The notes under the pieces: model-generated
Told to the model about the DNA's origin: nothing
The model's database searches: none
The model's input: only the letters and a program-made list of their open reading frames with translations
Made by a program: the position numbers and the translations under genes
Origin: Actinomycetes bacterium
GTDB taxonomy: Bacteria; Actinomycetota; Thermoleophilia; RBG-16-64-13
Length of the DNA stretch: 55,035 nt
Reading direction: 5' to 3'
NCBI GenBank assembly: GCA_021802965.1
Contig: JAJZQZ010000001.1
Location: forward strand, 1-55,035
Shown: positions 3,663-39,881 of the stretch, one piece after another
Layout of the letters: every line of letters begins with the position of its first letter
Numbering within the stretch: position 1 is the stretch's first letter

Positions 3663-3667
3663 GCCCG

Positions 3668-13898: not shown

Positions 13899-13980
13899 CT
13901 ACCTCCGTGTGTGCGCCAAAGGACTCAAGGCCGCGCGCATTCGACGGACCCTTCGTCGCTCGAATCGTGTCCGGGGCAGT

Positions 13981-14732: not shown

Positions 14733-14734
14733 TC

Positions 14735-16779: not shown

Positions 16780-17543
16780 CAGGCGAGATCGTCCCCGAGG
16801 TAGGCGCGTATGACCTCCTCGTCGTTCTGGATCATGAGCGGCGGACCCTCGGCGATCTTCTTGCCGTAGTCCAAGACCACCACCTCGTCCGAGATGTCCA
16901 TCACGAACCCCATATCGTGCTCGACCAGCAGGATGGTGACCCCGTTGTCGCGGATCTGACGCACCAGGTCGGCCAGGCGGTCGGTCTCGTCGTTGTTCAG
17001 GCCCGCGGCAGGCTCGTCCAGGAGCAGCACCGTGGGTTCCGTCGCCAACGAGCGCGCTATCTCCAACAGGTGCCTGTCTCCCATGGGGAGGTTGCCGGCG
17101 AGCTCCCCGGCCTGCGCCTCCAGCCCGACGCGCTTGAGGGCCTCGAAGGCGGTCTCGCGGACCTGCCGCTCCTCGTTCCGGTGACGCCGAAGGGAGAAGA
17201 AGCTCGAAAAGATGCCTGCTCTGCCCCGTTGATAGCGTCCGACCTTGACGTTGTCGAGCACGGTCATGTCATCGAAGACCTTGCTGTGCTGAAAGGTCCG
17301 CCCGATACCGAGGCCGGCCGCCTCGTGACGACGCAGGGTGCCGAGGTCATGGTCGCGAAAATATATGTGCCCCGCCGTCGGCCGGTCGACCCCCGAGATC
17401 AGGTTGAAGAGGGTGGTCTTGCCGGCCCCGTTCGGCCCGATCAGAGCCTTGACCTGGCCCTCGTACAGCGTGAAGGAGACTCTTTTCAGGGCGTCGAGCC
17501 CCCCGAAATTCTTCGACACGTCCTCCACCCGCATGATCGGCAT
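16779..17543 (-). CDS. livG: branched-chain amino acid ABC transporter ATP-binding protein (LivG type)
   Basis: ORF of 254 aa. Walker A GPNGAGKTT and Walker B LLLDEPAAGL. Confidence 0.9.
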   Translation of the reverse strand: MPIMRVEDVSKNFGGLDALKRVSFTLYEGQVKALIGPNGAGKTTLFNLISGVDRPTAGHIYFRDHDLGTLRRHEAAGLGIGRTFQHSKVFDDMTVLDNVKVGRYQRGRAGIFSSFFSLRRHRNEERQVRETAFEALKRVGLEAQAGELAGNLPMGDRHLLEIARSLATEPTVLLLDEPAAGLNNDETDRLADLVRQIRDNGVTILLVEHDMGFVMDISDEVVVLDYGKKIAEGPPLMIQNDEEVIRAYLGDDLA

Positions 17544-26765: not shown

Positions 26766-26780
26766 CGTCGGAACGAGAAG

Positions 26781-26852
26781 TGCCCACGGCAGGAATCGAA
26801 CCTGCGCTCCTGGCTCCGGAGGCCAGTGCTCTATCCCCTGAGCTACGTGGGC
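26781..26852 (-). tRNA. tRNA-Arg (anticodon CCG), no encoded CCA
   Basis: The reverse complement GCCCACGTAGCTCAGGGGATAGAGCACTGGCCTCCGGAGCCAGGAGCGCAGGTTCGATTCCTGCCGTGGGCA folds as a cloverleaf. It has a 7-bp acceptor stem, a CTCCGGA anticodon loop and a TTCGATT T-loop. The sequence after the discriminator A is CTTC, not CCA. Confidence 0.92.
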
Positions 26853-26896: not shown

Positions 26897-27859
26897 TCAG
26901 TCTCCCCACATCCCGGCGGCGTCGCGGGCGAAGATCAGCTCCGGCGGCCCCTTTTCCGGGTATGGAACGACCAAGTGGTCGAGATCGGAGGGCAGGATCG
27001 TCTGAGGAAAGGCGGCCCTGGCCTCGTCGAGAAGCTCTCGGCGTCCATGGCGCGAGCTGACGTGGGTGAGCACCAGCAACTCGACTCCCGCTTGCCGGGC
27101 CAGGACGGCGGCCTCCCGGGCGGTCGAGTGCCGGGTCTCCAACGCCCTGGCGGCCTCTGAGTCCGCGAACGTCGAGTCGTGGATCAGCACCGTTGCGTCT
27201 CGGCTCAGCTCGAGGACCTCCCGACTGGGTCGAGTGTCCCCTGAGATGACTATCTTCCGACCCGGTCTCCGTTCGTCCATGACCTGCTCGGGCTCGACCA
27301 CGTCGCCCGTAGGCAAGACGAGGGACTCGCCCGCCTGCAGCCGCCCGAAATCCGGTCCGGGCGTGACGCCGAGGGCCACAGCCCGATCGGGGTGGAACCG
27401 TCCGGGCCGCCACTCTTCCTCCAGGGCGTACGCGAGCCCGGGAATGCCGTGGTGGTTGCGCGCCGACCTGACCACATATCCGTCTCCCTGGACCACGGCG
27501 CCGCCGTCTATCTCGCGAAGGTCGATCGGGTACGGCAGCCGGCCGAACAGCCGATGCGATATCAGCATGATCTCTTCGAGGCCGGGCGGTCCCACGAGAT
27601 CGATGCCCGTCTCACGACCCATCAATCCGAGTGTCTTCAGCATGCCCGGCAGTCCCAAGAAATGGTCCCCGTGCAGATGGGTGATGAAGATGCGGTCGAT
27701 ATGGGCCAACCCCACCGATCGCATCAGCTGCCGTTGCGTCCCCTCCCCACAGTCGAACAGGAGACGCTCGCCCCCTCGGACCAGCAGAAGGCCGCTCGGC
27801 GCGCGGTCGACCGTTGGTACCGCTCCGGCCGTACCGAGGAACACCAGGCTGAGATCCAC
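26897..27859 (-). CDS. rnz: ribonuclease Z
   Basis: ORF of 320 aa. Metallo-beta-lactamase motif THLHGDH with an RNase Z-type N-terminus (LVFLGTAGAVPT..R..S). Confidence 0.92.
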   Translation of the reverse strand: MDLSLVFLGTAGAVPTVDRAPSGLLLVRGGERLLFDCGEGTQRQLMRSVGLAHIDRIFITHLHGDHFLGLPGMLKTLGLMGRETGIDLVGPPGLEEIMLISHRLFGRLPYPIDLREIDGGAVVQGDGYVVRSARNHHGIPGLAYALEEEWRPGRFHPDRAVALGVTPGPDFGRLQAGESLVLPTGDVVEPEQVMDERRPGRKIVISGDTRPSREVLELSRDATVLIHDSTFADSEAARALETRHSTAREAAVLARQAGVELLVLTHVSSRHGRRELLDEARAAFPQTILPSDLDHLVVPYPEKGPPELIFARDAAGMWGD

Positions 27860-27862
27860 CGC

Positions 27863-28282
27863 CTAGTCGGCTGGGTCCCCCGGCCCTTCGACGAGATGCC
27901 GTATCGCCTCGGGGGCATACTCTTCGGGATCGTGGCGGAACAGGGGGTTCTGGCAGCCCCGCCATGAATAGCGAGAGGGATAGGCGTGCTCGATAGCCGC
28001 CTGGCATTCGCGCAGGGGCCTCCTTCGAGCGAGAAGAGCTCCATAGACGTCGCGGCGCGAAGACGGCTCCATGGGCGCCAGGTCGAGCTCGGGCCGGAAG
28101 ATCTTCTGGACGCACCCGAAGTACGTCGTGTCTCCATCGGTGTAGGCGTACACGTATCGGCACGATGTGCGGATGCAGTGGCTCGGATATACGACGTGCT
28201 CGCAGATGACATCGCAGCGGTGGCAGGCCATCTTGCCGGTGTCTTCATGCTCTCTTGCAGCGTGATGTGGTCTAGAGCTCAT
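27863..28282 (-). CDS. Cys-rich hypothetical protein
   Basis: ORF 27863..28300; I prefer ATG 28282. It has 8 Cys (CHRCDVICEH..HCIRTSCRY..GC...C...C) and ends 4 nt before the rnz start. No family recognised. Confidence 0.5.
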   Translation of the reverse strand: MSSRPHHAAREHEDTGKMACHRCDVICEHVVYPSHCIRTSCRYVYAYTDGDTTYFGCVQKIFRPELDLAPMEPSSRRDVYGALLARRRPLRECQAAIEHAYPSRYSWRGCQNPLFRHDPEEYAPEAIRHLVEGPGDPAD

Positions 28283-28371: not shown

Positions 28372-29322
28372 CTATCCCACATCCGACTCCGTCCTCGTCC
28401 CCGGCACAAGACGCACGCGACCGAGAGACCTGTCAGTGGCCCAACGCAGGATCGCCGGTTCGAAGACGACGCCCCCCGAGGCCCCCATATGCACCTGCTC
28501 GCTGCAGAACACCGCCCCATGAAGGAGAGTGCCCTCCAGGCGCAGGGAGCCACCGTCGACGACGATCACGGCGAACATGTCCCCCAGGGACGACACACTC
28601 AGGCTCGCTCCGCCGGTGACCACGATCAGGGCTGGGGTCTCCGGGGCGCTCCCGGCTGCGTCGTTCCCGCCCGGGCTGGGATCGCCGGCCGGCGACCAGA
28701 GCGTGTCGGCATACTCGACGTAGCCCAGCCCATCCCGCTCAAGCAGGAGCACGGAAGCGTGAGAACCGTGGGCCATCTCTTCCCGGATCTGGAACAAAGA
28801 TCCCTCATCCAGAGACCACCTCTTTGGCAAGACCGATGACGCGACGTCGGGCCCGAGCATCGCGGCTGGGGGCGAGACTCTGGTGACGACAGGAGCGACG
28901 GTTCCTGTACCGCGCGGTGACGATATGGCCGCGACTGTCCGTGAGTCAGGCCACACAAGTCGATCCGCGACCACGGCTGCGTACGGCAGATCGATGCCGT
29001 CCTGCGCCCTCTCGACGCGGGTCCCGAGTCGACGGTCGGGCCACATGGGCACCCACGCCCGCAGTGTTCCCGGTCTATCGGCTTCGTTCCATTCGAGCTC
29101 GCCGGGCCTGCCCGGTCCGAACTCTTCGACTCGCGCCCCCCACTGGCGACGGGCCGACCCGGCCATTCTGAACAGACGTGTGTCGGCGGCGACGGACTCG
29201 GCGGCTGCGTCGCGCTCCTGGATGAGCAGTGATTCGCCGCCCTGCACCAGGACGGCCAAGCCTGCGCACAGCGCCATGGCGCCCAAGCAGGTCAGCAGCA
29301 CCACCAACAGTACCGACCCCAT
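28372..29322 (-). CDS. PilX-like minor pilin / pilus assembly protein (module A)
   Basis: ATG 29322, within ORF 28372..30000. The upstream part of that ORF overlaps the preceding gene in another frame. PilX_N-like start GSVLLVVLLTCLGAMALCAGLAVLV...IQERDAAAES, with no G-F cleavage motif. Confidence 0.6.
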   Translation of the reverse strand: MGSVLLVVLLTCLGAMALCAGLAVLVQGGESLLIQERDAAAESVAADTRLFRMAGSARRQWGARVEEFGPGRPGELEWNEADRPGTLRAWVPMWPDRRLGTRVERAQDGIDLPYAAVVADRLVWPDSRTVAAISSPRGTGTVAPVVTRVSPPAAMLGPDVASSVLPKRWSLDEGSLFQIREEMAHGSHASVLLLERDGLGYVEYADTLWSPAGDPSPGGNDAAGSAPETPALIVVTGGASLSVSSLGDMFAVIVVDGGSLRLEGTLLHGAVFCSEQVHMGASGGVVFEPAILRWATDRSLGRVRLVPGTRTESDVG

Positions 29323-29357
29323 CTCCCTGGGTCGTGAGCCGCGCTGTGGCCGAACGT

Positions 29358-30029
29358 TCAACGAGCCACCCACAGAAGCGACTCCACAGGCAGTCCGCGC
29401 GTGGTGCCGTCGGCCGGGTCGGCGGCCAGGAGCCTGCACGAGACAGTGTCGATCCAGCGGAGATCTTCCGTAGAGACAGTCGTCTCCGCTCCGGTCACGC
29501 TTTCGGTGGTCAGCCAGGCCTGACCAGGAACGCGCCGGCCGACAGAGAACACGCTCGAGTCCGACACGTTCTCGAGCATGGTCTTGTGATCTACATAATG
29601 GGAGTGATCGGTAGGAGAGGCGAGAGCGCTTGTCTGCCACGGACCTCTCCGGCGCATGACGTTCCCGCCCGCGATCTCCCACTCCACCAATTGGGCCGAG
29701 CCGTCGGCAGGCGAACGGGTGACGACGACCAGCTGATGCGAGGCGGCAAAGATTAGGGGGCCTCCGAGGGCCACGGTGTCGCCTGAGCCAACGTCCAGAC
29801 CCACTCCTGCGAGCCGCAGATCTCGCTCCAATCGAGCCGCGGCGACTCGCGCCTGGGCACTCCAAATCACCCGGTCGGCCGCGCTCACTCCCACCCTCTG
29901 GACTGAGATCCAGAGGGGAGCGCAGGCCAACGCAAGGACCAGAGCCAACGCGAGGGCCACTAACAGCTCGATGAGGGTGAAACCCGCGCCCGCCGACCAC
30001 GCCGAGGCCCTAGAAGAAGAGATCGACAC
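29358..30029 (-). CDS. PilW-like minor pilin with prepilin N-terminal methylation motif (module A)
   Basis: GTG 30029, preceded by GGGAGG, within ORF 29358..30113. Class III signal AGAG/FTLIELLVALALALVL. It overlaps the upstream gene by 20 nt. Confidence 0.7.
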   Translation of the reverse strand: MSISSSRASAWSAGAGFTLIELLVALALALVLALACAPLWISVQRVGVSAADRVIWSAQARVAAARLERDLRLAGVGLDVGSGDTVALGGPLIFAASHQLVVVTRSPADGSAQLVEWEIAGGNVMRRRGPWQTSALASPTDHSHYVDHKTMLENVSDSSVFSVGRRVPGQAWLTTESVTGAETTVSTEDLRWIDTVSCRLLAADPADGTTRGLPVESLLWVAR

Positions 30030-30729
30030 GCCTGCCTCCCGCCGGGATCCAGGACTGCATGGCTCTCTCCCACGACACCGACGCCGATCCGGCGCCGGTC
30101 GACAGTTGCACAAGAAGGGGACTCGCCTGTGTCACCTTCTGGACCGCCGCACCCGATGACAGGATCTGGACCTCGACGACCCCAGCCTCAGGCACGTGGA
30201 CGGCGGCCCACGATCCGAGCGCCGGATCGCCCTCAGATGAGGTCGCATCGACCGCCGACGGCCGCGGCGTCACCGGGTCGTCCGACGGAACGAGGGTGCG
30301 CGCCGGCGGTCCCCAGGGACCGGACGCCTCACGCATGCGCACGACGACTTCTTGGCCCGCCCGGGAAGACCAGATGATCGGCGAACCGAGGGTGGTCTCG
30401 TCGGTCCAGTCCGGGCTCATGCAGACCAGCAGCCACCCGTCGCTCCACACACCCACGATCCCGTCGATGAGGGCGGCTCCGTCGCGAGTGTCCCCGGTGA
30501 GACCGCTCCCCCAGCTCCAGCGAAGATCCCGCACCGTCGGCCCCCAGGTCCATCCTTGTTGGACCTCGGGTGGCAAACCCGGACCCGACGCGCCCATCGC
30601 GGTCTCCCAGCCGGCTATTCTTGTCTGCAGCGAGAGCAGCACGTGCACGATCGGGCCGACAGCGAACATGAGCAGGCCCATAGCCATCACCACTTCCACC
30701 AGGGTGAACCCCTCTCGACAGCGTCTCAT
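30010..30729 (-). CDS. PilV-like minor pilin (module A)
   Basis: ATG 30729, within ORF 30010..31053. Short leader MRRCREG/FTLVEVVMAMGLL. Trp-rich globular part. Confidence 0.68.
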   Translation of the reverse strand: MRRCREGFTLVEVVMAMGLLMFAVGPIVHVLLSLQTRIAGWETAMGASGPGLPPEVQQGWTWGPTVRDLRWSWGSGLTGDTRDGAALIDGIVGVWSDGWLLVCMSPDWTDETTLGSPIIWSSRAGQEVVVRMREASGPWGPPARTLVPSDDPVTPRPSAVDATSSEGDPALGSWAAVHVPEAGVVEVQILSSGAAVQKVTQASPLLVQLSTGAGSASVSWERAMQSWIPAGGRRVDLFF

Positions 30730-30737
30730 GGTGTGGC

Positions 30738-31229
30738 TCACCACGTCTCTCTTCGGGTGAGCCCGCTCTCGGCCCGCACGACCACCCGCGACCCGGATCC
30801 CGGAGCACCGAGATAGAGGGAGCGCGCGGCGTCCGGAGAACCGAACGGAGCCACGAAGCCGATCGTGACGCCCGACGGCGATCGCCAGCGCCGGACGTTG
30901 GTGGCGCAGGCTTCGTCCCGGGACCCCGCGGTGAGTTCGCCGACCCGTCCCGTCGCCCCGCTCAGGCGGAGCTCCGATCCCCGACTCACCAGCACGAGGC
31001 GCTCGCCGCGACGAGCCGAGGCGATTTCCGCCCACGCGATGGCCAGCTGCCATCGCTGGGCCGAGTTGCGAGCGTCGTGTCTTGCCAAGACGTCCCCCAG
31101 CGTCGTGGCGGGAAGAACGGCCACCAGCGCCACTATGGCGAGAACCACCAGGAGCTCGATCAGGCTGTGACCGGCGCGGGCGTCAGTCTTGAGTGAGATG
31201 GTGAACCGGATGTGTAAGGCCTCGAACAT
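30738..31229 (-). CDS. FimT/GspH-like minor pilin (module A)
   Basis: ORF of 163 aa. Leader ...TDARAG/HSLIELLVVLAIVALV, followed by a GspH-like helix and a short beta domain. Confidence 0.68.
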   Translation of the reverse strand: MFEALHIRFTISLKTDARAGHSLIELLVVLAIVALVAVLPATTLGDVLARHDARNSAQRWQLAIAWAEIASARRGERLVLVSRGSELRLSGATGRVGELTAGSRDEACATNVRRWRSPSGVTIGFVAPFGSPDAARSLYLGAPGSGSRVVVRAESGLTRRETW

Positions 31230-31321
31230 GCCGCGAGGCTATCGCGCGGCGGCCTCCCGGGTCGATGCGACCTTAGACCTACGATGCCGGCGTGACCACC
31301 CGCCCGGCGAGGATCGCTCAG

Positions 31322-31843
31322 CTACCAGCCGACGCTGCCCGCACCGTCTATGACCTTGACCTTGATGTACGAGACGCCGGTCCCATCCACGAGCGTGTCG
31401 ACCTGGATACCGTACCGGTTGCCGCTTTCACTGACGGAGCCCACATCGAAGGTGGTGGCGGTTTCCCCGTAGAAGTCGACTGCATCGTCCCTTGCAGAGC
31501 TTGTGACCGCATTGGTCACGAGGGGTCCGACAGGGTCGACAAGGTTATCGGGTGCGACGGTCCACTGTATGGCGGGCTCGATGGCAGTCAGATCATCCGC
31601 GCTGATCAAGCGGTAGTCGTGTCGCTCCATGTTGGCGCTTTCGACTACGGTGAGCGCGTTGCGAACAAGGGTCACAGCGGCCGCGTCTTGAGCCTTCATA
31701 CGCGTCCCCAGATACGTCGGGATCGCGATCGCTGCAAGGATGGCGATGATGATGATGACCACCAACAGTTCGATGAGAGTAAAACCCGCGTCACGACGTG
31801 CCTCGCACGCTTTGCCATGGAAGAGACGCACCATCATGTTCAT
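31322..31843 (-). CDS. type IV major-pilin-like protein, paralogue 1
   Basis: ATG 31843, preceded by AAGGGAGA, within ORF 31322..32197. Leader MNMMVRLFHGKACEARRDAG/FTLIELLVVIIIIAILAAIAIPTYLG with Glu at +5. The mature part is 153 aa with no Cys. Confidence 0.9.
   Translation of the reverse strand: MNMMVRLFHGKACEARRDAGFTLIELLVVIIIIAILAAIAIPTYLGTRMKAQDAAAVTLVRNALTVVESANMERHDYRLISADDLTAIEPAIQWTVAPDNLVDPVGPLVTNAVTSSARDDAVDFYGETATTFDVGSVSESGNRYGIQVDTLVDGTGVSYIKVKVIDGAGSVGW
31716..31786. repeat. about 71-nt near-identical segment shared with 34289..34359
   Basis: I count about 8 mismatches in 71 nt by eye. The segment encodes the pilin N-terminal helix of both paralogues. Confidence 0.85.
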
Positions 31844-33225
31844 CTCCCTTCGCGTGGCCGGGCCAACATCCCGAGAAGCAAGAAGAAGATAGTGTGGACG
31901 CCCGGGACAGTGATGGAAACAAGTGAGGCGGCAAGATAGCCGGCAAGCCCGCACATCACTGCCGCGCTCTCGGGACCGAGCGCACGGCGCAACGATTGGC
32001 GCGCCGGCTCCCGGCCGACTACGCAAAGCAGGAGGAAGCAGAGAAGGGCGCCGGGTATGCCGAGGGTGACCGCCAGGTTGAGCGGCTCTGAATGAGCCTT
32101 GTCCGCGACCACAGCCGGCCCTTCTCCTTCGTCGAACTGCGGCGTACGGTAGGACTCGAACACGGCCCCCATTTGATCGGGCCCCGTTCCGAACCACGGA
32201 CGGTCCCTGATGATTGCCAACGCGATCGCCCAGGTGGCAAGCCTACCGGCGTTGCGGGCATCACTGATCGAGACGGCGCTCGCGGCGTCTTTCGCCAACG
32301 AATGCGGCTCGACCACGACACGATCGCCACGGGGCACAAGAGAAACCGCAATGGCGAGCAGGGCGGCGACTGCAATCACTCCGATCAGGCGCCGGTAGCG
32401 AGATGACCGCGTCCACAGTAGAAGACCGACAAGAAGCAAGAGACCTCCGAGCGAACCGATCCAAGCCGCCCGGCTGAACGTGAAGTAGGTCGCAGCCAAG
32501 GTCACTCCGACTCCCGCGGTCCACAGCAACGCGGCGGCCCGACCGTCAGAACGGACGGCTCGGATCACCAAGATCGGCATCATCAATGTCAGATAGCCAC
32601 CAAGTACGACAGGATTGTGGAATGTCCCGCTGCTCCGAGCGTACGTCAGGCTCGTCGAGAGGCCGCTGAAGTCCAGACCGAAGTGTTGGAGGACCGCGTA
32701 TGCGCTGACGCCCACACATGTCAGGGCGGCGGCGTCTCCCACCGTGCGCCAGGACCGCTCGTCGGACATCGTCATGGCCGTGGCCATCACAACCAAGCCG
32801 GCGAACCATACGAGCAGGCCATCGTGCCGCAAAGCGCTACCCCAGACGGCACCCGAAGGATCGACCGACACCAGCGTCGATAGGGTCAGCCATCCTGTGA
32901 GGCCGAGGCCTACGACGAGGATCGGGCTCAGACGCGTGAGCGTGATCGTCCTCGTCAGGAGCGCGCATGCCCACCAAGCCGCCATGAGCGCGCCCAGCAG
33001 GAGAACCGCCTGCGCTTTGACGCCGTAGAAGCCGTCGAAACCGTCGGACGGATTGAAAGCGATGATGGGAATGGTGACAACGCCGGCCAATAGGCCTAAC
33101 CGCGCGGCGCCGAGGGCGCGACGTATCGCCACACACCTAGTCGAAGCCTGCTCGCTAGGGCTGCCGAGCGCGCAGCCGATGCTGCCTAGACTGGTCGAAA
33201 GCCGTACGTCGCGAGTACCTGCCAT
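31840..33225 (-). CDS. O-antigen ligase (Wzy_C) family polytopic membrane protein
   Basis: ORF of 461 aa with many TM segments. Wzy_C-like blocks YFTFSRAAWIGSLGG, RPWFGTGPDQ and KAHSEPLNLAVTLGIPG. Its stop overlaps the pilin-1 start by 4 nt. Confidence 0.8.
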   Translation of the reverse strand: MAGTRDVRLSTSLGSIGCALGSPSEQASTRCVAIRRALGAARLGLLAGVVTIPIIAFNPSDGFDGFYGVKAQAVLLLGALMAAWWACALLTRTITLTRLSPILVVGLGLTGWLTLSTLVSVDPSGAVWGSALRHDGLLVWFAGLVVMATAMTMSDERSWRTVGDAAALTCVGVSAYAVLQHFGLDFSGLSTSLTYARSSGTFHNPVVLGGYLTLMMPILVIRAVRSDGRAAALLWTAGVGVTLAATYFTFSRAAWIGSLGGLLLLVGLLLWTRSSRYRRLIGVIAVAALLAIAVSLVPRGDRVVVEPHSLAKDAASAVSISDARNAGRLATWAIALAIIRDRPWFGTGPDQMGAVFESYRTPQFDEGEGPAVVADKAHSEPLNLAVTLGIPGALLCFLLLCVVGREPARQSLRRALGPESAAVMCGLAGYLAASLVSITVPGVHTIFFLLLGMLARPREGR

Positions 33226-33228
33226 CGT

Positions 33229-33789
33229 CTATCCCGCCCCACCCGGCTGCCCACCTTCGAGCTTCCGCAGGATCGTCGATGCGTACCGATATCCCGGGTC
33301 CACCTTCATGACGTCAAGCAAGATGCTTCTCGCCTCAGCTGTGTTGCCGGAAGCGATCAAGCTCTGTGCCAAGAACGTCCGGTGCTTGGGGCTCGGGTCG
33401 AGAGCGACTGCCTCCTGGAAGACGCGCACCGCTGCGTCCGGTCTTGCCTGGTGGTTCAGGTAGTTGAAGGCGAGCTCGACCCGCGTCTGGACGTCGCGCG
33501 GGTCTGCTGCGATCGTCCTCTCCTGATACGGGAGGGCCTCATCGAATCTACGAAGGAGCACCAGGTTCACAGCCAGTCCCTTCAATGAAGCAAGATCGTC
33601 GGGATGGTCGGCCAGCACATCCAGGTAGAGCTCGTTCGCCTCTGCGAGCGCGCCTCGGTCCTCCAGCGCCCGCGCTCGTCCGAGCCTGGCGTCCCCGCAT
33701 GCGCTCAGCGCGATGCCGAGGCACACCATCAAGATCACCAGCTTGCCGGAGCGCCTTGCGTGTGAGAACGGGTTCATCTTTCGCCTCAT
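33229..33789 (-). CDS. TPR-repeat lipoprotein
   Basis: ORF of 186 aa (alternative start ATG 33777). Lipobox LSAC, followed by about 4 TPR-like repeats. Confidence 0.72.
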   Translation of the reverse strand: MRRKMNPFSHARRSGKLVILMVCLGIALSACGDARLGRARALEDRGALAEANELYLDVLADHPDDLASLKGLAVNLVLLRRFDEALPYQERTIAADPRDVQTRVELAFNYLNHQARPDAAVRVFQEAVALDPSPKHRTFLAQSLIASGNTAEARSILLDVMKVDPGYRYASTILRKLEGGQPGGAG

Positions 33790-33806
33790 GCCTCCTGAGA
33801 AGCGGA

Positions 33807-33835
33807 GGGGCAGGGCTCTCAGTAAGCCCTGCCCC
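33807..33835 (-). terminator. strong hairpin immediately downstream of pilin 2 (attenuator/partial terminator)
   Basis: Perfect 11-bp stem GGGGCAGGGCT / AGCCCTGCCCC with a 7-nt loop. On the minus strand it is followed by UCCGCUUCUC, which is only moderately U-rich. Confidence 0.5.
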
Positions 33836-33915
33836 TTCCAAGAACCCAGAGTGGGCCACTCAGGTGATCAGCTCAGATCGTCCTAAGCGCTCTCTCCGGT
33901 GCGATTTTTGACCGA

Positions 33916-34398
33916 CTACCAGGTTTGCGGGTTGGCGCCGATGTAGAACGTGTTGCCCGGAGCGAACGTAGTGGCGTCAGCGCTCTTATTGACATGCACC
34001 CCGAACGTGCGACCGGATTGAGAAACGGTGCCCACTTCGTAGTTGGCGCCATCCATGCCCGAGAAGTCGACCGCATTACCAGAGGCCTGCGCGGTCGGAC
34101 CGGCGGCAACGCCGCCACCCGCTCCGGCATAGACGAAGACGATCGACGGCTCGATGTCCTCCAGCATGGGCGACACGATGAGATCGAATGCGCGCGTGTC
34201 GGTGAACGCCGACTCGACGGCGGTCATGCCGTTGCGCACTAGGGACTTGGCCGCCGCGTCCTGGGCCTTCTGCCGCTGCCCGAGGAACGTCGGGATTGCG
34301 ATGGCGGCGAGGATGGCGATGATGATGATCACCACCAACAGTTCGATGAGGGTGAAACCGCCCTCGCCCTTCATCCTCTTCGAGAGTTTGCTCAACAT
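33916..34398 (-). CDS. type IV major-pilin-like protein, paralogue 2
   Basis: ATG 34398, preceded by AGGAGG, within ORF 33916..34476. Leader MLSKLSKRMKGEGG/FTLIELLVVIIIIAILAAIAIPTFLG. Shares the C-terminal block AVDF.G......VG.VS.SG...G..V with paralogue 1. No Cys. Confidence 0.9.
   Translation of the reverse strand: MLSKLSKRMKGEGGFTLIELLVVIIIIAILAAIAIPTFLGQRQKAQDAAAKSLVRNGMTAVESAFTDTRAFDLIVSPMLEDIEPSIVFVYAGAGGGVAAGPTAQASGNAVDFSGMDGANYEVGTVSQSGRTFGVHVNKSADATTFAPGNTFYIGANPQTW
34289..34359. repeat. partner of the 31716..31786 repeat
   Basis: See 31716..31786. Confidence 0.85.
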
Positions 34399-34440
34399 GG
34401 TGCCGACCTCCTGTGTTCGAGACTGTACGCACGGCACCCG

Positions 34441-34562
34441 CAAACAAAAAGGCCTGCGGTGTGCCCGGCAAACCACAGACCTGAGTCTGGTGGCAGTCCA
34501 GCCGACCCCGTGGGCCCTGTGACTTTGCGTCCCACCCTTGCGAGTGGTTTGCCCTTTGCACC
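34441..34562 (-). promoter_or_regulatory. c-di-GMP-I (GEMM-I) riboswitch: aptamer about 34489-34562 plus intrinsic terminator 34441-34481
   Basis: The minus-strand RNA reads GGUGCAAAGGGCAAACCACUCGCAAGGGUGGGACGCAAAGUCACAGGGCCCACGGGGUCGGCUGGACUGCCACC. It carries the GEMM-I hallmarks: GGGCAAACC, a GNRA-capped hairpin, GGGACGCAAAG and a second hairpin, closed by GGUGCA/UGC(C)ACC. Downstream is GGUCUGUGG, a 13-nt loop, CCGCAGGCC and UUUUUGUUUG. Confidence 0.85.
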
Positions 34563-34571
34563 TTCGCCCTT

Positions 34572-34601
34572 AGTATGCCCCCCTAGTCAAATCCTAGACA
34601 A
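34572..34601 (-). promoter_or_regulatory. candidate promoter for the riboswitch-pilin transcript
   Basis: Minus strand: TTGTCT (34596-34601), an 18-nt spacer, then CATACT (34572-34577). This would start transcription a few nt before the aptamer. Confidence 0.3.
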
Positions 34602-34769
34602 CTTTCGCTCAACATTTCGCCCGGTGTCGAATCTGGGGCGCAACGCCGGGTCTTGGGGGACTACCGCGGACGCCAGGTCTATCGGCCACCGTAGCAGGGA
34701 GCTTTAGGGGTACGCCCTACGTCCTTGGGATGACGCCGGCGGAGGAGATAGGCCCGAGGACCGGCGGGC

Positions 34770-35108
34770 TCAGCGGCTGAGGTTCTCGAGCAACCGCGTG
34801 AGTACATAGAGGCGATCCTTGTGGTCGTGGATCGCCTTCGCGAAGGTGTCGAGACCCTGGCGAAAATCTTCGTCAGCGCACAGCTGCCATGCGCCGTCGC
34901 GGTCACGTTCGAGGGCGCCTTGTGAGGACAACCGGGCGGCCGCTTGACTCAGATCTTCCGGCCGCCGGCCGATGTCGCGGGCCAGGTCGACCACCGAAAC
35001 CGATTCCGAGGCGTGAGCCGCGAAATAGATGAGGACATCCCAGGCTTCGAACGTCGACACGTATGTGTCGACGAACTTCACCAGTATGTCCCTCTCGCGT
35101 TCACTCAT
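34770..35108 (-). CDS. small winged-helix-like hypothetical protein
   Basis: ORF of 112 aa, preceded by GGGAGG. The central stretch VSVVDLARDIGRRPEDLSQAAARLSSQGALER looks like an HTH plus wing. No family recognised. Confidence 0.5.
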   Translation of the reverse strand: MSERERDILVKFVDTYVSTFEAWDVLIYFAAHASESVSVVDLARDIGRRPEDLSQAAARLSSQGALERDRDGAWQLCADEDFRQGLDTFAKAIHDHKDRLYVLTRLLENLSR

Positions 35109-35268
35109 ACGCCGGGCAGCCTCCCACGGACCCTCACCCTACAGGCGGCTCTAGTGTAGTGGGTCTGCCATAATAAGTCGAGGACATCGCCGAGCAAGGG
35201 AAGAGACAGTAGATACCGCCGATCCAGCACCAGACGACAGGGGCCCCTCCCTACGCGTCTCGGCGTGC

Positions 35269-35706
35269 GTGGTGAAACGAGGCCGCGTACTCCTGGTCGA
35301 GCAGCAGAAGGGCGCGCGCCGCTACTGGCTCCTTCCAGGCGGAGGCGTCCAACGTGGCGAGTCCCTGGTCGAAGCGCTCGCCCGGGAGGTGAACGAGGAG
35401 TGTGGCCTTCACGTGGAGGTCCTCACGCCCCCACTGGCCGTCGTCGAGACTATCTCCCCAGACGCGGGAAGGTCACGTCACCTGGTTCACCTGGTCTTCG
35501 CCGCCCGAGCCACCGGACTCGATGAACCGTCCCCCGGCGACGCCACCGTGCGCGACGCCCGCTGGTTCGGGCCCGAGGAGCTGGGTGAATTGGTGATCCA
35601 CCCTCCACTGCACGACCTGCTCGCGCGGTGGCTCGAGTCTTCCCCCGACGAGATGACCCGACCGCTGCCTCCGCAGGCCTGGGGCGGGGTGCGCTGGGTG
35701 CACTAG
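35269..35706 (+). CDS. NUDIX hydrolase
   Basis: ORF of 145 aa, GTG start. Nudix box GGGVQRGESLVEALAREVNEECG. Confidence 0.85.
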   Translation: MVKRGRVLLVEQQKGARRYWLLPGGGVQRGESLVEALAREVNEECGLHVEVLTPPLAVVETISPDAGRSRHLVHLVFAARATGLDEPSPGDATVRDARWFGPEELGELVIHPPLHDLLARWLESSPDEMTRPLPPQAWGGVRWVH

Positions 35707-35714
35707 CCCTTTCT

Positions 35715-35740
35715 CCCCGACGACACTCGTATCGTCGGGG
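35715..35740 (+). terminator. hairpin after the NUDIX gene
   Basis: Perfect 9-bp stem CCCCGACGA / TCGTCGGGG with an 8-nt loop. The T-tract that follows is weak (GCGTTCTTTGG). Confidence 0.4.
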
Positions 35741-35821
35741 CCGACTCTGCGTTCTTTGGTAAAGGTCGGGCACGTCTGTGCCGATGACGGTGTGAGGACC
35801 CCGATGACGAGGAAGGATGCG

Positions 35822-37372
35822 ATGCGTAGGCAGCGATCGGCCGGCGGTTTCACCCTCATCGAGGTCATGGTCGCGGTCCTCCTTCTTCTCGTGGCGATGG
35901 CAGGCTTCGTGCCGTTCTTCCTGCAGGGTCTCGGTCAGGCCTCTTCCACCCGCTACCGCAGCACGGCGACCAACATCGCCCGGCAGCGCATGGAGGAGAT
36001 CCGCCAGCTCGACTACCGGGAGATACCGGTGGGTGATCCTGCGCGCAACTGGTACAGCGACGCCCTGGCGACCAAGTTCGGGGTCGCCGATTCAGTGCGG
36101 GGCGCGGACTTCACGACCAGCTACGCGGTCGAAGACGTCGCCTATGGCTCAGGCAACCTCAAGAAGGTCACCGTGACGGTCACGTGGGCTGCTCCCCCGG
36201 CTCCGTCCCCCGCCATCGTGACCAGCCTCATCCACCAGCAATACTTGGGACCGCGCGGTCGCCTGCTGACGGTCGCTCCCGTCGCGGCCGACGACTTGGG
36301 CACTCCGTTCCCGCAGGTGCAGCGCACGCTCGACCAGGTGACCGTGAAATATCACATCGCGGAGGCCGACTGGGGGCTCGTCTACCCCGATCCGCAGGAT
36401 CCCGCTTCAGTGGCCTTCAACGTCTACATGCGTCTGACCCTGGTCGACGACCATGGCGCGGCGATCACCGTGGGTGATCCGGCCACGGACTATAAGATCT
36501 TGAATACCGCCCTGCAAAAGACCTGGGACACCAACGGCACGCTCACCGATGTGTACTTCGAATTCCCGTTCGATCGCCTACTGATCCCCGATGGCTACTG
36601 GGAGATGCAGGCGGTGGCGTACAACGAGTACGATGAGCCGGGCAACGTATGGCGTATGCGGCTGAGGTTCGAGGAAGGCGCCCCTAACCCGCCCACCGAC
36701 TTCATCGCGATCCCCGGAGCCGACAACCAATCGGTCATGCTCAGCTGGGTGCCCGGGATCGAGCGCGACAGAGACCATTACGTCCTGCAGCGGCAGCGCC
36801 TGAACCTGAATCCAGACCTCACTCTGAGCTACGGCCCTTGGGAGGATGTGAACACCAACCTCAGCCCCGACTCAGTCGTGTTCACCGACGTAGGCAGTGT
36901 CGCCGGCGCCAAGGACCCCTGGGGCTCCGACACAGGCAGCATCAAGATAACGAACTACTATCAGTACCAGATCTGGGCGGTCGACTTCGCTTCGACTCCC
37001 AACTCAGGCCCGCCCGCCACCGTCGGGGCCCAGCTTCCTGGCCCCACGACCACGACCACAATCGCTACGGGAGCGACGACGACCCTGGCTCCGACGACGA
37101 CCCTGGCTCCGACGACGACCCTGGGACCGACCACGACGATCTTGTCCACGGTGCAGATCGTCAACAAGACGAGCTTGGACTACTCGATCACGGTGCGCGA
37201 CTCGAAGAACCACACGGTCTTCACGGGCACTGCAGCTGGTCTTAGCACTCTCTCCATCCCCAGCCTGCCGGCCGACTCGTACTCTGTGGACGCGCGCAGC
37301 GGAAGCGCGCATCTATCCACCAGCTTCCAGGTGCCTCGGGACAACGGTCTCACCGTTCTGGAGATCCTGTAG
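35822..37372 (+). CDS. large modular PilV-like minor pilin (module B)
   Basis: ATG 35822, preceded by GAGGAAGGA (alternative ATG 35804), within ORF 35756..37372. Leader MRRQRSAGG/FTLIEVMVAVLLLLVAMAG and a PilV-like core ending KKVTVTVTW. An FN3-like segment follows (PNPPTDFIAIPGADNQSVMLSWVPG...YQYQIWAVD), then a Thr-rich linker and a roughly 75-aa C-terminal domain. Confidence 0.75.
   Translation: MRRQRSAGGFTLIEVMVAVLLLLVAMAGFVPFFLQGLGQASSTRYRSTATNIARQRMEEIRQLDYREIPVGDPARNWYSDALATKFGVADSVRGADFTTSYAVEDVAYGSGNLKKVTVTVTWAAPPAPSPAIVTSLIHQQYLGPRGRLLTVAPVAADDLGTPFPQVQRTLDQVTVKYHIAEADWGLVYPDPQDPASVAFNVYMRLTLVDDHGAAITVGDPATDYKILNTALQKTWDTNGTLTDVYFEFPFDRLLIPDGYWEMQAVAYNEYDEPGNVWRMRLRFEEGAPNPPTDFIAIPGADNQSVMLSWVPGIERDRDHYVLQRQRLNLNPDLTLSYGPWEDVNTNLSPDSVVFTDVGSVAGAKDPWGSDTGSIKITNYYQYQIWAVDFASTPNSGPPATVGAQLPGPTTTTTIATGATTTLAPTTTLAPTTTLGPTTTILSTVQIVNKTSLDYSITVRDSKNHTVFTGTAAGLSTLSIPSLPADSYSVDARSGSAHLSTSFQVPRDNGLTVLEIL
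37075..37128 (+). repeat. 3 x 18-nt tandem repeat (GACGACGACCCTGGCTCC) encoding TTTLAP repeats
   Basis: Two perfect copies and a third with 2 mismatches, inside the Thr-rich linker TTTTTIATGATTTLAPTTTLAPTTTLGPTTT. Confidence 0.9.
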
Positions 37373-37389
37373 ATGGAGGAGACGTCGGA

Positions 37390-38136
37390 GTGAGGCGCTT
37401 GCTCGCGGGTTCGATCGATTGGAGTCGCCGACGGCTGTGCGCCGGGTCGGCCGAAGGACAGTCCGGCTTCAGTCTGGTCGAGTTGCTGGTGGCCATGGTC
37501 GTGCTCATCGTGGTGATGGGCGCGACCTTCGGCATCTGGCTCGGCCTCGAGAATGTCTACACCTTCACGAACGACGACATGGTGGCCCAGGAGCAGGCTC
37601 GGACCGCCATGGGCGAGATGGTGGAGCTCATCCGCACGGCTCGGAGACCGGCGACTGTTCCCGACGAGGCTCTGAACGCCGTCATGCCGGTCGCCGGCCG
37701 CACCGAGCTCACTGTCTGGAGCGATGTGGACCGTGCGCCCGATCACGGGCTCGAGCTGATCCGCTTCCGGGCCGATCACCCGGCCGGCGCCCCTAATGAA
37801 CAAGTGCTCTATCGTGACCAAGCGACGGTCGGGGCGAGCAGTCGCTCCTGGACGTCGGAGCGCCTGGTCACGCCAAACGTCAGCAACTGGTTCGACCCTG
37901 CCAGACCCAGCGACGAGACCGGCTGGCTCTTCTCCTATTACAACGGAGCGGGAGAACGCCTGCTCTTCGACGACGAGATCCTTGGCTATACCGGGACCAT
38001 CGAGCACGTGATCCCCGATCCCAACTCGATCCGGGAGGTGCGGATCAATCTGTTGGTGGACCTCTATAAGGACCGGGCCCCCATCACCCATCAGCTCACC
38101 TCAGTCGTCCAGCCACGGAATCTCCGGCAGTACTGA
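37390..38136 (+). CDS. PilW-like minor pilin (module B)
   Basis: ORF of 248 aa. GTG start preceded by GGAGGAG. Signal ...AEGQSG/FSLVELLVAMVVLIVVMG. Confidence 0.7.
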   Translation: MRRLLAGSIDWSRRRLCAGSAEGQSGFSLVELLVAMVVLIVVMGATFGIWLGLENVYTFTNDDMVAQEQARTAMGEMVELIRTARRPATVPDEALNAVMPVAGRTELTVWSDVDRAPDHGLELIRFRADHPAGAPNEQVLYRDQATVGASSRSWTSERLVTPNVSNWFDPARPSDETGWLFSYYNGAGERLLFDDEILGYTGTIEHVIPDPNSIREVRINLLVDLYKDRAPITHQLTSVVQPRNLRQY

Positions 38137-38146
38137 TACTCGGGAG

Positions 38147-39400
38147 ATGAACATGCACAGTTGCGATTCGCAGACGGACACACGGCCGGGCAGGGTGCGT
38201 CTCACCACGAGCGACGGCTCGGCGGTCATCATCGCGATGATGTTCATCCTCGTGATGCTGGGGTTGGGAGTCGCCCTCTTCACACTCATCAAGTTCTCGA
38301 TCAACGGAACCGAACTCGAGCGCAAGGAGGTGAAGGCGTTCAACGTGGCGGAGGCCGGGATCGACGCCGGCATGCTCGCCCTGAAGCTCGAGTGGCCGGA
38401 CCAGATCGCCACTACGGTCGACGCAGTCGCTCTGAGAAACCACTTCGACGCCAACGTGTTCAGGGATCCTTCGCGCAGCTCTCCCAGCGAGTTCATCCAG
38501 GTCGCGCTCTACGACAACAACGGTACGACCGACTACAGCGACGCAAATCCGGCCGTCGACCTAGACAGCGAGAGTGCATCCGGACCTGGGGACCCCCGGG
38601 GGGATGACATGATGTGGGTGGATAGCCGGGCCAACGTCGACGACGACCGCCACCGGATCCTCGTCCTCGCGAAGCGGGAGCGCTGGAACCTCAATCTGCC
38701 GAACAAGGCCCTGTTCGCATCGACACTGATGGCGAATCCGAACGTCCGGGTCGCCGTGGACAGCGCTTCCACCCCGCCTTCCCAGACCGACCTCGCCGTG
38801 TACTCCGCGCCCGACCCGCGGGATGTGGAGTTACTCGACGGCGTGACGCAATATGCCGGGGCCCCCGATTGGTCGCAGTGGATAACCTCGGGAACCACGG
38901 GCAAGCTTCAAAGCGTGGCCAAGGCTTCAGGCACGTACTTCGACGACGATCCAGGTACCCCCTATCCGAGCATCGCGGAAGGGGTCGACCTGCTCGTGAA
39001 CGGAGACCCGAGCGGCAAGATCATCTACCTGAAGTCGAGCACTGCGATCGAGATCGCGGGCAACACCCAGATCGCGACACGCGAGCACCCTGTGGTGCTG
39101 GTCATGGATACGCCGTCGACCGTCACGAACGCCCTCGACTTCAGGGGCACGGCCGACTTCTACGGCGTGGTGATCAGTCTCAGCAACCTCCAGGCGCGGG
39201 GGACTTCGTCGTTCTACGGCTCCGTGCTCTGCGCCGGCCAGTTCGACAACCGTGGGCGAGGCGTCAGCCCCGAGATCAACTACAACGGCGACATCATCGC
39301 CATGCTCAGCCGCAAGTTCACCATGAGCGTCTCGATCGTGCCCAACACGTGGCAAGAGTATACGGTACCCAACACCACCCTCGCCGTCGCGGGCGGGTAG
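38147..39400 (+). CDS. PilX-like minor pilin / putative tip protein (module B)
   Basis: ORF of 417 aa; ATG 38153 has the better spacing to GGGAG. PilX_N-like start DGSAVIIAMMFILVMLGLGVALF...AFNVAEAGIDAG. Large C-terminal part. Confidence 0.65.
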   Translation: MNMHSCDSQTDTRPGRVRLTTSDGSAVIIAMMFILVMLGLGVALFTLIKFSINGTELERKEVKAFNVAEAGIDAGMLALKLEWPDQIATTVDAVALRNHFDANVFRDPSRSSPSEFIQVALYDNNGTTDYSDANPAVDLDSESASGPGDPRGDDMMWVDSRANVDDDRHRILVLAKRERWNLNLPNKALFASTLMANPNVRVAVDSASTPPSQTDLAVYSAPDPRDVELLDGVTQYAGAPDWSQWITSGTTGKLQSVAKASGTYFDDDPGTPYPSIAEGVDLLVNGDPSGKIIYLKSSTAIEIAGNTQIATREHPVVLVMDTPSTVTNALDFRGTADFYGVVISLSNLQARGTSSFYGSVLCAGQFDNRGRGVSPEINYNGDIIAMLSRKFTMSVSIVPNTWQEYTVPNTTLAVAGG

Positions 39401-39412
39401 ACGGGCAGAGAC

Positions 39413-39449
39413 GGGTAGCCGTCGGCCGACCGGCGGCGCACGCCTACCC
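39413..39449. terminator. imperfect hairpin between the convergent pilX-like gene and dut
   Basis: Outer arms GGGTAG...CTACCC, inner arms CCGTCGG/CCGGCGG, and an asymmetric internal loop. No U-tract. Confidence 0.25.
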
Positions 39450-39881
39450 CTGGCGATCACCGGTGCTGCCGAAACCGCCCGCTCCGCGGGCGGTTTCTTC
39501 GAGGGTGACCACCGCGTCGAAGGCGGGAGTCTCGACTGCCTGGATCACCAACTGTGCTATGCGGTCCCCGGGCGCTACGGTGAACGGCGCCTCTCCCCCG
39601 TTGTGCAGGCAGACCCGCACCTCGCCTCGGTAGCCCGCGTCGATCAGGCCGGGCGCGTTCACGACGGATATGCCGTGGCGGAACGCCAACCCGGAGCGGG
39701 GCTGCACGAAGCCCGCATGTCCCGAAGGGATGGCCAGGGCGAGGCCGGTGCCCACGTCGCGGCGCTCGCCCGGGGGGATCACCACCGCCTCCACGGAATG
39801 CAGGTCGGCTCCGCCGTCACCCTCGTGCGCCCGCCAGGGAAGCCGGGCCGCCGGGTGCAGGAATTGGACCTGGATCTTCAC
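39444..39881 (-). CDS. dut: dUTP diphosphatase
   Basis: ORF of 145 aa. Motifs GDGGADL, VNAPGLIDAGYRGE and RGAGGFGSTG. Confidence 0.95.
   Translation of the reverse strand: MKIQVQFLHPAARLPWRAHEGDGGADLHSVEAVVIPPGERRDVGTGLALAIPSGHAGFVQPRSGLAFRHGISVVNAPGLIDAGYRGEVRVCLHNGGEAPFTVAPGDRIAQLVIQAVETPAFDAVVTLEETARGAGGFGSTGDRQG

Follow-up and report, generated by a model that had tools for sequence, protein, structure and literature searches.

Here, we describe an 11 kb block of pilin-type genes in a 55,035-nucleotide stretch of DNA (contig JAJZQZ010000001.1; "the window" below, meaning the whole stretch analysed) from an uncultured, Thermoleophilia-like actinobacterial lineage, and compare it with the closest described type IV pilus systems. 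In cyanobacteria, two conserved minor-pilin sets with a β-solenoid PilX prime two distinct filaments on one machine, and the solenoid has been proposed to replace PilY1 (10.64898/2026.02.12.705559). In Thermus, two pili are built by one machine (PMC7203116), and a second study argues that ComZ fits only at the filament tip (PMC6561018). Type IV pilus genes of Rubrobacter have WhiG promoters of the form TAAA...GCCGATAA with mapped transcription start sites, and sequestration of WhiG by RsiG together with c-di-GMP (cyclic diguanosine monophosphate) is established for Streptomyces and, structurally, for Rubrobacter (PMC8325347). In Clostridioides difficile, the riboswitch Cdi-2-4 of the pilA1 gene belongs to class II, acts as an ON switch through a transcription terminator, and gives pili at high c-di-GMP (PMC6366702).

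The concept of two tips is thus already known from cyanobacteria and Thermus, and the locus described here is not a new kind of machine. Specific to it are a fixed chromosomal position in the lineage, paralogous tip sets that lie back to back with pilin genes, a modular PilV bearing FN3 domains, and the occurrence together of a σWhiG-type promoter and a predicted OFF riboswitch for c-di-GMP. On balance, we lean towards the explanation that this is a structural-subunit locus of type IV pili that provides two tip sets for a motor encoded elsewhere and that is controlled by WhiG-type promoters and a c-di-GMP OFF riboswitch. Three alternative minor-pilin clusters are presumably present in Myxococcus xanthus, and we take the fimU-pilVWXY1E operon of Pseudomonas aeruginosa to be unlinked to the motor genes, as the minor-pilin genes are here. 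The locus is unlike both in that it has no PilY1 homologue, with a β-solenoid PilX in its place, and in that the specific family models were not reached.

Two divergent sets of pilin-type genes

The block carries nine pilin-type genes in two divergent gene sets, module A with the major pilins and module B, between rnz and dut. The pilin genes had been listed correctly in the initial annotation, which overlooked the TPR, Wzy_C, winged helix-turn-helix (wHTH)-like and NUDIX genes of the block. The pilin operon, module B and the flanking genes are as follows.

33916-34398, minus strand: pilA2, promoter-proximal major pilin (N_methyl 34.6 bits, GFTLIE)
33229-33789, minus strand: TPR lipoprotein gene (lipobox LSAC; TPR_19 6e-14 and other TPR models)
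31840-33225, minus strand: gene of a Wzy_C/O-antigen-ligase-like membrane protein (PF04932, 80.7 bits, E 1.2e-22)
31322-31837, minus strand: pilA1, second major-pilin paralogue (N_methyl 36.8 bits, GFTLIE)
30738-31229, minus strand: FimT_A, minor pilin in the FimT/GspH position of module A (N_methyl 25.8 bits, GHSLIE)
30010-30729, minus strand: PilV_A, minor pilin in the PilV position of module A (N_methyl 21.6 bits, GFTLVE)
29358-30029, minus strand: PilW_A, minor pilin in the PilW position of module A (N_methyl 27.9 bits, GFTLIE)
28372-29355, minus strand: PilX_A, PilX-type protein of module A without Glu5 (start GTG 29355 or ATG 29322)
35822-37372, plus strand: PilV_B, modular "giant PilV" of module B (N_methyl 24.8 bits, GFTLIE)
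37390-38136, plus strand: PilW_B, minor pilin in the PilW position of module B (N_methyl 26.0 bits, GFSLVE)
38147-39400, plus strand: PilX_B, PilX-type protein of module B, predicted ComZ-like β-solenoid (AlphaFold2 and Foldseek)
26897-27859, minus strand: rnz, flank on one side of the block
26780-26852, minus strand: tRNA-Arg(CCG), flank
39444-39881, minus strand: dut, flank on the other side, where dapL, dapF and miaA also lie

Transcription proceeds on the minus strand in the order pilA2, TPR, Wzy_C, pilA1, FimT_A, PilV_A, PilW_A and PilX_A, and on the plus strand in the order PilV_B, PilW_B and PilX_B. As had been stated before, the locus is wedged between housekeeping genes, with tRNA-Arg(CCG) and rnz on one side and dut, dapL, dapF and miaA on the other.

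Exactly seven open reading frames (ORFs) of the window scored above the gathering score of PF07963 (N_methyl, 21.2 bits), with values from 21.6 to 36.8 bits. These are the same seven in which a class III signal/N-methylation motif had been noticed before, and their G/F-x-x-x-E prepilin motifs are kept in orthologues from other species. Two further ORFs had been called PilX-like, and this was confirmed: the N-termini of PilX_A and PilX_B consist of a conserved (R/E/D)-G-S (RGS in PilX_A) followed by a hydrophobic stretch, without Glu5, and in both modules the PilX-type protein is encoded by the last gene of the minor-pilin set. Both proteins thus have the conserved Gly, the lack of Glu5, the N-terminus of the PilX_N type and the terminal gene position by which PilX/GspK-type tip pilins are recognized. 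PF14341 (PilX_N) itself did not match PilX_A or PilX_B at E<=0.1, and PilX_A matched no Pfam or NCBIfam model; PilX_N is recorded for several PilX_B orthologues and is matched by 8 of 77 distant relatives. Assignment of the locus genes as type IV pilin and minor-pilin genes is supported by these signatures.

The labels FimT, PilV and PilW denote operon position and not demonstrated orthology. Attempts to place the minor pilins as GspH/I/J or FimT/PilV/PilW by hidden Markov model (HMM) or by PDB profile did not succeed. No match of a globular domain to the FimT/FimU/GspH, PilV/GspI or PilW/GspJ family models was obtained, and the scores recorded come from the N-terminus of FimT_A (TIGR01708 gspH, 25.6 bits vs. 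a cut-off of 80) or from the N-terminal helix only (TIGR02523 PilV, 31 bits vs. 52.2; TIGR01711 gspJ, 20.6 bits vs. 64.85). Of the description of module A as FimT-, PilV-, PilW- and PilX-like, the prepilin genes therefore stand, while the family names rest on N-terminal motif, size and gene order. The HMM check proposed along with that description gave the same division: N_methyl was found in seven ORFs, the PilV, GspH and GspJ models stayed below cut-off, and PilX_N was not found. Residue +1 of FimT_A, which would be N-methylated, is His (G/HSLIE); GH(T/S)L is present in 8 of 14 FimT_A orthologues, and the remainder have GF, GY or GL.

The PilA2 prepilin has 160 amino acids and a mature form of 146 amino acids with a C-terminal Trp and no Cys. 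Both mature major pilins have zero Cys and an invariant terminal Trp, as do nearly all of their orthologues, and mature length is ~146-153 amino acids. PilA1 and PilA2 are 51% identical to each other (BLASTP; hhalign 100%), and PilA2 is 55-66% identical to its orthologues. That the major pilins lack cysteines, as do pilins of monoderm bacteria, had been recognized before and is true of mature PilA1 and PilA2; the missing disulfide is no proof of a monoderm cell plan. Thermus pilins, like PilA1 and PilA2, presumably have no disulfide either. The pil locus of Streptococcus sanguinis we take to contain two paralogous major pilins (PilE1 and PilE2), as here, and also the machinery, unlike here.

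The two modules were compared by profile-profile alignment (hhalign) of orthologue alignments. Full-length homology was found between PilW_A and PilW_B (99.9%, E 1e-37) and between PilX_A and PilX_B (98.3%, E 1.6e-14); homology of PilV_A and PilV_B is limited to the helix. Judged from these profiles, the modules are ancient paralogues. That module B arose recently as a copy of module A was considered and rejected, since BLASTP between the modules detects the N-terminal helices alone and the paralogy of the W and X proteins becomes visible only by profile comparison.

An AlphaFold2 model of PilX_B, built from a 60-sequence alignment, had a predicted local distance difference test score (pLDDT) of 87.0 and a predicted TM-score (pTM) of 0.80 and combines a β-solenoid with a pilin-type sheet and a long N-terminal helix; in the models of both PilX_B and PilV_B, the long N-terminal helix packs on a β-sheet. 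The top PDB fold match of PilX_B by Foldseek is ComZ of Thermus thermophilus (6QVI, E 2.8e-4, probability 0.94), followed by ice-binding β-solenoids. The likeness to ComZ exists at the fold level only (E 2.8e-4, TM 0.22), and a profile search of the PDB with PilX_B gave no sequence-level match to ComZ. We treat the two proteins as sharing a predicted architecture, homology not being proven. PilX_A was assigned to the solenoid class only through its hhalign match to PilX_B. The PilX_B family comprises 2527 representatives at E<=1e-3 in a profile search of 1.84 billion representatives, some of which match PilX_N or DUF7305.

The AlphaFold2 model of PilV_B (mean pLDDT 87.8) contains a pilin head (residues ~1-140), two Ig/FN3-like domains (~146-405), a Thr-rich disordered linker (413-439) and a C-terminal β-sandwich (442-516). 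Its Foldseek matches are FN3 arrays (E 1e-9 to 1e-7), and in some relatives PilV_B bears a PASTA domain instead. The linker (window ~37058-37138, plus strand) has the near-repetitive sequence TTTLAPTTTLAPTTTLGPTTT; a role as an O-glycosylation stalk is plausible. Minor pilins with large grafted adhesion modules are known from S. sanguinis (PilB and PilC; 10.1101/2021.01.27.428410), where the modules are vWA or lectin, whereas PilV_B has FN3.

The cyanobacterial Com and EPS sets (Synechocystis PilA5-8 and PilA9-12; 10.64898/2026.02.12.705559) resemble the locus in their deep PilV/PilX split, in having no PilY1, and in a bulky β-solenoid PilX that resembles ComZ and ice-binding proteins, the same two classes that PilX_B matches by fold. 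A single shared machinery encoded elsewhere is a further likeness, which on our side would apply only if the machinery exists as proposed below. The cyanobacterial sets come from another phylum and have no demonstrated sequence relationship to those described here, and their operons are regulated divergently, whereas here the sets lie back to back with pilin genes alongside and share one promoter type. Module B, moreover, does not have the FimT member, PilV_B has FN3, and the system is known here from genes and models. The pilA1-pilA2-pilA3-comZ-pilA4 locus of Thermus likewise has minor pilins followed by the β-solenoid ComZ next to a major pilin (PMC6561018), and the wide and narrow pili of Thermus pair two pilins with one machine (PMC7203116). 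The Thermus locus has one minor-pilin set, whereas there are two here and three in one relative (L029).

Conservation across related genomes

Homologues of PilV_B and PilX_B were found only in metagenome-assembled genomes (MAGs) labelled Thermoleophilia, Gaiellales, Actinomycetota or "Actinobacteria bacterium RBG_16_64_13"; every one of the 125 PilV_B homologues comes from a MAG. The same arrangement is present in ~20 species-level genomes at a fixed position between rnz and dut-dapL-dapF. To the left of the divergence, the shared order is lipB, rnz, a small Cys-rich ORF, PilX_A, W_A, V_A, FimT_A, PilA1, (Wzy), (TPR) and PilA2; to the right, it is (wHTH, NUDIX), PilV_B, W_B, X_B, dut, dapL, dapF and miaA. 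At the amino-acid level, dapL of well-assembled loci is 66-78% identical to its counterpart in the window; the corresponding values are 55-72% for PilA2 and 27-56% for the minor pilins.

Ratios of nonsynonymous to synonymous substitution rates (dN/dS), determined by the Nei-Gojobori method for four pairs of relatives, were 0.11-0.28 for module B, 0.13-0.32 for module A and 0.13-0.45 for the pilins, compared with 0.05-0.20 in the flanking genes dut, dapL and dapF. With values of 0.08-0.10, the wHTH gene is under strong constraint. These values support the maintenance of both modules by purifying selection. A horizontal island was ruled out by the flat G+C content (~66% across the whole window) and by clade-wide synteny with the housekeeping flanks; the locus is chromosomal, old, functional and vertically inherited.

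The number of triads varies among relatives. In L029, a third V-W-X triad follows module B (13482-17419), with a different large PilV, a 489-amino-acid PilX and its own WhiG-type promoter; the PilV of this triad has an IPT/TIG-like stretch, judged from the sequence by eye. In L009, an extra V-W-X triad (1931-3693), again with a different large PilV and its own WhiG-type promoter, stands in place of the pilin operon. In L008, L028 and L033, a solitary triad of the module B type lies in another neighbourhood behind a WhiG-type promoter, with no module A, pilin gene or dut nearby. The extra triads behave like add-on cassettes.

In some of the related loci (L007/L030, L011, L018, L023, L029 and L032), genes are split into adjacent fragments in different frames. 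Most of these loci come from MFD assemblies, and the fragments most likely reflect assembly indel errors and not pseudogenes; the loci were excluded from alignments and dN/dS.

Predicted promoters and a predicted c-di-GMP riboswitch in the pilA2 leader

The following features were found in the region between the two gene sets and after pilA2.

34679-34706, minus strand: predicted σ28/WhiG-type promoter serving the pilin operon (281 nt upstream of pilA2), TAAA-N16-GCCGATAG
35760-35787, plus strand: predicted σ28/WhiG-type promoter of module B, TAAA-N16-GCCGATGA, just upstream of PilV_B
34484-34566, minus strand: predicted c-di-GMP-I-class riboswitch aptamer in the pilA2 5′ leader (Rfam RF03167, c-di-GMP-I-GGC, clan CL00126)
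34441-34481, minus strand: predicted expression platform (terminator stem, U-tract and anti-terminator)
33804-33839, minus strand: very stable GC hairpin directly after the pilA2 stop codon, before the ribosome-binding site of the TPR gene
34770-35108, minus strand: small wHTH-like gene between the divergent promoters (MarR_2/ArsR matches below cut-off)
35269-35706, plus strand: NUDIX gene between the divergent promoters (NUDIX 68.8 bits)

The window was scanned with the σ28/WhiG-type consensus TAAA-N15/16-GCCGATAA taken from Rubrobacter (PMC8325347). Exactly two matches with <=1 mismatch were retrieved from the 55 kb, compared with 0.05 expected from shuffles, and they lie in front of the two divergent operons. 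Matches at these two positions recur among relatives, in 22 of 27 loci for module B and in 20 of 22 for pilA2. Both operons are thus predicted to be read from promoters of the σ28/WhiG type. No sigma factor gene was found in the window; scans with σ70 and terminator consensus sequences were uninformative in its GC-rich DNA. Rubrobacter belongs to a sister class of early-branching Actinobacteria and has the same promoter motif as that in front of both operons here. Its promoters, however, are located inside the cluster of type IV pilus genes, whereas here the pilin locus is apart from assembly genes, and no riboswitch has been reported there (PMC8325347), whereas one is predicted in the pilA2 leader here.

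The leader contains a full-length match to RF03167 at 34488-34562 (minus strand; 59.0 bits vs. a gathering score of 59, E 1e-13). The same place in relatives scored 59.7 (L005), 59.1 (L020) and 49.7 bits (L021). A model built from these four loci, the window included, finds the aptamer in 8 loci, each time between the promoter and the ATG of pilA2. Over the four aligned loci, aptamer identity is 92%; housekeeping proteins of those species are 65-78% identical to those of the window. In the aptamer, 98.5% of cells are paired, compared with 23-52% in slid controls, and seven pairs change on both sides, which was reached by 0 of 500 shuffles; the secondary structure thus has support from covariation. 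The consensus G of RF03167 (GCGAAG) is replaced with A (GCAAAG) in the window, L005, L020 and L021. The element is predicted to be a riboswitch of the c-di-GMP-I class and to bind this ligand.

In the putative expression platform, GGUCUGUGG (34481-34473) pairs with CCGCAGGCC (34459-34451) to form a terminator stem, followed by UUUUUGUUUG and with the U-tract at 34450-34441. Across seven species the stem is 92% paired, and L025 carries a compensatory variant. A 10-nt anti-terminator arm, GUGGUUUGCC (34476-34467), is the exact complement of GGCAAACCAC (34553-34544) in the aptamer core. This arm is invariant, and GTGGTTTGCC is invariant in 7 species while its flanks vary. Constrained folds for three relatives favoured the anti-terminator state over the terminator state by 9-12 kcal/mol. 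A hairpin with the U-tract in its loop, returned by minimum-free-energy folding and by RNAalifold, was considered as the terminator and is read instead as the free 3′ arm in the read-through state. We predict that the riboswitch would turn the pilA2 operon off under high c-di-GMP, because the ligand-bound aptamer would free the terminator arm. Such an OFF switch would act concordantly with the sequestration of WhiG by RsiG-c-di-GMP. The arrangement resembles that of Cdi-2-4 of C. difficile, a c-di-GMP riboswitch with a terminator in the leader of a major-pilin gene, but Cdi-2-4 is a class II ON switch, whereas the element described here belongs to the class I clan (RF03167) and is predicted to be OFF.

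The fold of 33785-33925 (minus strand), which includes the hairpin after pilA2, had z = -3.6 vs. shuffles. The hairpin is probably an attenuator or an mRNA stabiliser and fits a high-pilin, low-minor-pilin expression ratio. Because pilA2 is promoter-proximal, best conserved and followed by this hairpin, PilA2 is probably the main fibre subunit; PilA1 would serve either as another fibre subunit or in an auxiliary role.

Among the accessory genes, the Wzy_C gene adjoins pilin genes in five of the eight loci of the riboswitch-bearing subclade. The pilin O-oligosaccharyltransferases TfpO/PilO and PglL presumably belong to the Wzy_C Pfam family, and in P. aeruginosa we take the TfpO/PilO gene to lie next to pilA. 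The same context, a Wzy_C membrane protein encoded next to a pilin gene, was found here, and from this adjacency the protein, a candidate O-glycosyltransferase, probably glycosylates pilin. By sequence, it had no match among solved structures. Most of the related loci have the TPR lipoprotein gene in the corresponding place. The lipoprotein was considered as a PilF/Tgl pilotin but is not assigned as one, since only generic TPR cross-matches were obtained and those to PilW/Tgl models were weak. The NUDIX gene is present in exactly the eight riboswitch-bearing loci and the wHTH gene in five of them; whether these two are parts of the pilin system is uncertain. Between PilX_A and rnz lies the small Cys-rich ORF (27863-28231, minus strand; ~122-145 amino acids), which had no Pfam or NCBIfam match and is kept at 36-58% identity in nearly all loci having the rnz-side flank; it may be either a member of the pilin operon or a partner of rnz.

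Proposed tip complexes, assembly machinery and rival readings

In the explanation that we favour, the left operon would supply abundant pilin PilA2, the TPR lipoprotein, the Wzy_C enzyme, PilA1 and the FimT/V/W/X set, and the right operon would supply the second, paralogous V-W-X triad. Each V-W-X set, in one case with FimT, would form a tip complex that is capped by its own Glu5-less PilX and from which a filament would be nucleated on machinery (motor, platform and peptidase) encoded elsewhere. Two pilus tips would result: one would be plain, and the other would present the FN3 stalk and the C-terminal domain of PilV_B as an adhesin. WhiG-type promoters would drive both operons, while the ligand-bound riboswitch would free the terminator on the pilin operon, and pilin synthesis would be off at high c-di-GMP. 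Two kinds of tip are favoured because there are two Glu5-less PilX caps, a number that suits two distinct tip complexes better than a single complex; by analogy with the systems described above, two tip complexes on one unlinked machine are plausible.

As the initial annotation had stated, no motor, platform, peptidase or secretin gene was detected in the 55 kb, either by Pfam scans of every sizeable ORF or by tblastn with PilT. There was no Peptidase_A24 gene in the 55 kb by Pfam, and other sizeable ORFs matched housekeeping families or none. The families present include riboflavin synthesis, PriA, MetK, a branched-chain amino-acid ABC transporter, CorA, LipB, MiaA/MiaB, RNase Y, RecA/RecX, RodZ and FtsK; the nearby recA/recX genes are part of the conserved housekeeping synteny. 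The P. aeruginosa PilT probe, which is essentially identical to PDB 3JVU (750 bits), detects PilB/GspE/PilF at E<1e-28 and had no match either in the window or among 34 related loci (~0.6 Mb). No secretion-type ATPase was found within 10 kb of the locus in ~20 related genomes. It is thus supported that assembly genes are unlinked to the pilin locus. Since the genes are intact, conserved and under purifying selection, their products are presumably assembled by something encoded elsewhere; we infer that a motor, platform and peptidase are encoded elsewhere in the genome, with purifying selection as indirect support.

Several observations weigh against the two-tip explanation. No assembly ATPase, platform, peptidase or PilMNO gene was found in the window or <=10 kb from related loci. 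Module B, a V-W-X triad, has no member of the GspH/FimT type; its earlier description as giant PilV-, PilW- and PilX-like genes on the divergent plus strand is correct, but by the measure of a four-protein set it is not the complete module it was said to be. PDB profile searches with the minor pilins gave matches confined to the N-terminal helix, and the NCBIfam-specific FimT, PilV and PilW models were well under their cut-offs. The TM-score between PilX_B and ComZ is only 0.22, with the domains differently oriented. One relative (L010) retains both modules with a single major pilin, which speaks against a version with one pilin per module. Both modules lie behind the same promoter type, so one would not readily expect them to be expressed under different conditions; the modules may be co-expressed parts of one pilus, and the sole regulatory difference seen between them is the riboswitch on the pilA2/module A operon. 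The riboswitch score of the window is exactly at threshold, its terminator and anti-terminator states are near isoenergetic in constrained folds, and the OFF direction comes from thermodynamic folding only.

A bolder form of the favoured explanation can be offered tentatively, as possible but less likely than not. V-W-X triads would be interchangeable tip cassettes, each with its own WhiG-type promoter and a different PilV head (FN3, PASTA or IPT/TIG-like), so that one motor would serve several tips. All pilin supply would be under double OFF control by c-di-GMP, at initiation through RsiG-WhiG and at the terminator through the class I riboswitch, with a polarity opposite to that in C. difficile.

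The alternative that survives best, although we consider it unlikely, is that there is one pilus, for which module A is the sole priming complex, and that module B is a co-expressed accessory adhesion complex in the same filaments, comparable to PilB and PilC of S. sanguinis. This would agree with the identical, conserved promoter type on both operons, with the presence of a FimT/GspH-position protein in module A alone and with the single major pilin of L010. PilV_B would then be a modular pilin with grafted FN3, an architecture described for S. sanguinis PilB (10.1101/2021.01.27.428410). However, both PilW_B and PilX_B have full-length paralogues in module A, which makes module B look like a second core of the I-J-K type and not like decoration. 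Two bulky, Glu5-less β-solenoid caps would also be hard to place on one tip, by the argument given in PMC6561018, and some genomes have a solitary triad of the module B type elsewhere or a third triad.

It is improbable that the genes encode a short pseudopilus, that is, a competence pilus for DNA uptake with ComZ-like DNA receptors or a piston resembling that of type II secretion. The best fold match of PilX_B is indeed a competence pilin, ComZ, which binds DNA in Thermus (PMC6561018); the gene order H-I-J-K is that of pseudopilin operons, and N-terminal matches to GspG, GspH, GspJ and ComG models were obtained. These matches, however, reflect the shared N-terminal helix only and are far under the cut-offs, and the mature pilins, at ~146-153 amino acids, have the length of type IVa pilins vs. 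~100 amino acids for ComGC. The β-solenoid PilX of cyanobacteria is present in both motility and competence sets, so the fold does not imply DNA uptake; the FN3 stalk of PilV_B suggests adhesion, and the proximity of recA/recX is accounted for by housekeeping synteny.

That the pilin genes are an orphaned relic, left after loss of the machinery and no longer assembled, would explain why no machinery was found in the window or near any related locus but is very unlikely and excluded for practical purposes, since every gene is intact in the window, gene order is kept in ~20 species with dN/dS of 0.1-0.45, and conservation extends to the promoters and the riboswitch.

Type IV pili have hardly been studied in the early-branching classes of Actinobacteria. 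The organism is uncultured, and the value of the locus is comparative rather than transformative: it provides a conserved parts list in which two pilins and a candidate glycosylase accompany two or three paralogous sets of tip proteins, and it would extend the architecture of two priming complexes with β-solenoid PilX from cyanobacteria and Thermus to a third phylum. If the explanation favoured here is true, tips with a β-solenoid PilX would be an old and general alternative to tips of the PilY1 type, and pilin synthesis in this lineage would be governed by a two-layer c-di-GMP circuit with a predicted OFF response, the reverse of that of the best-studied pilin riboswitch.

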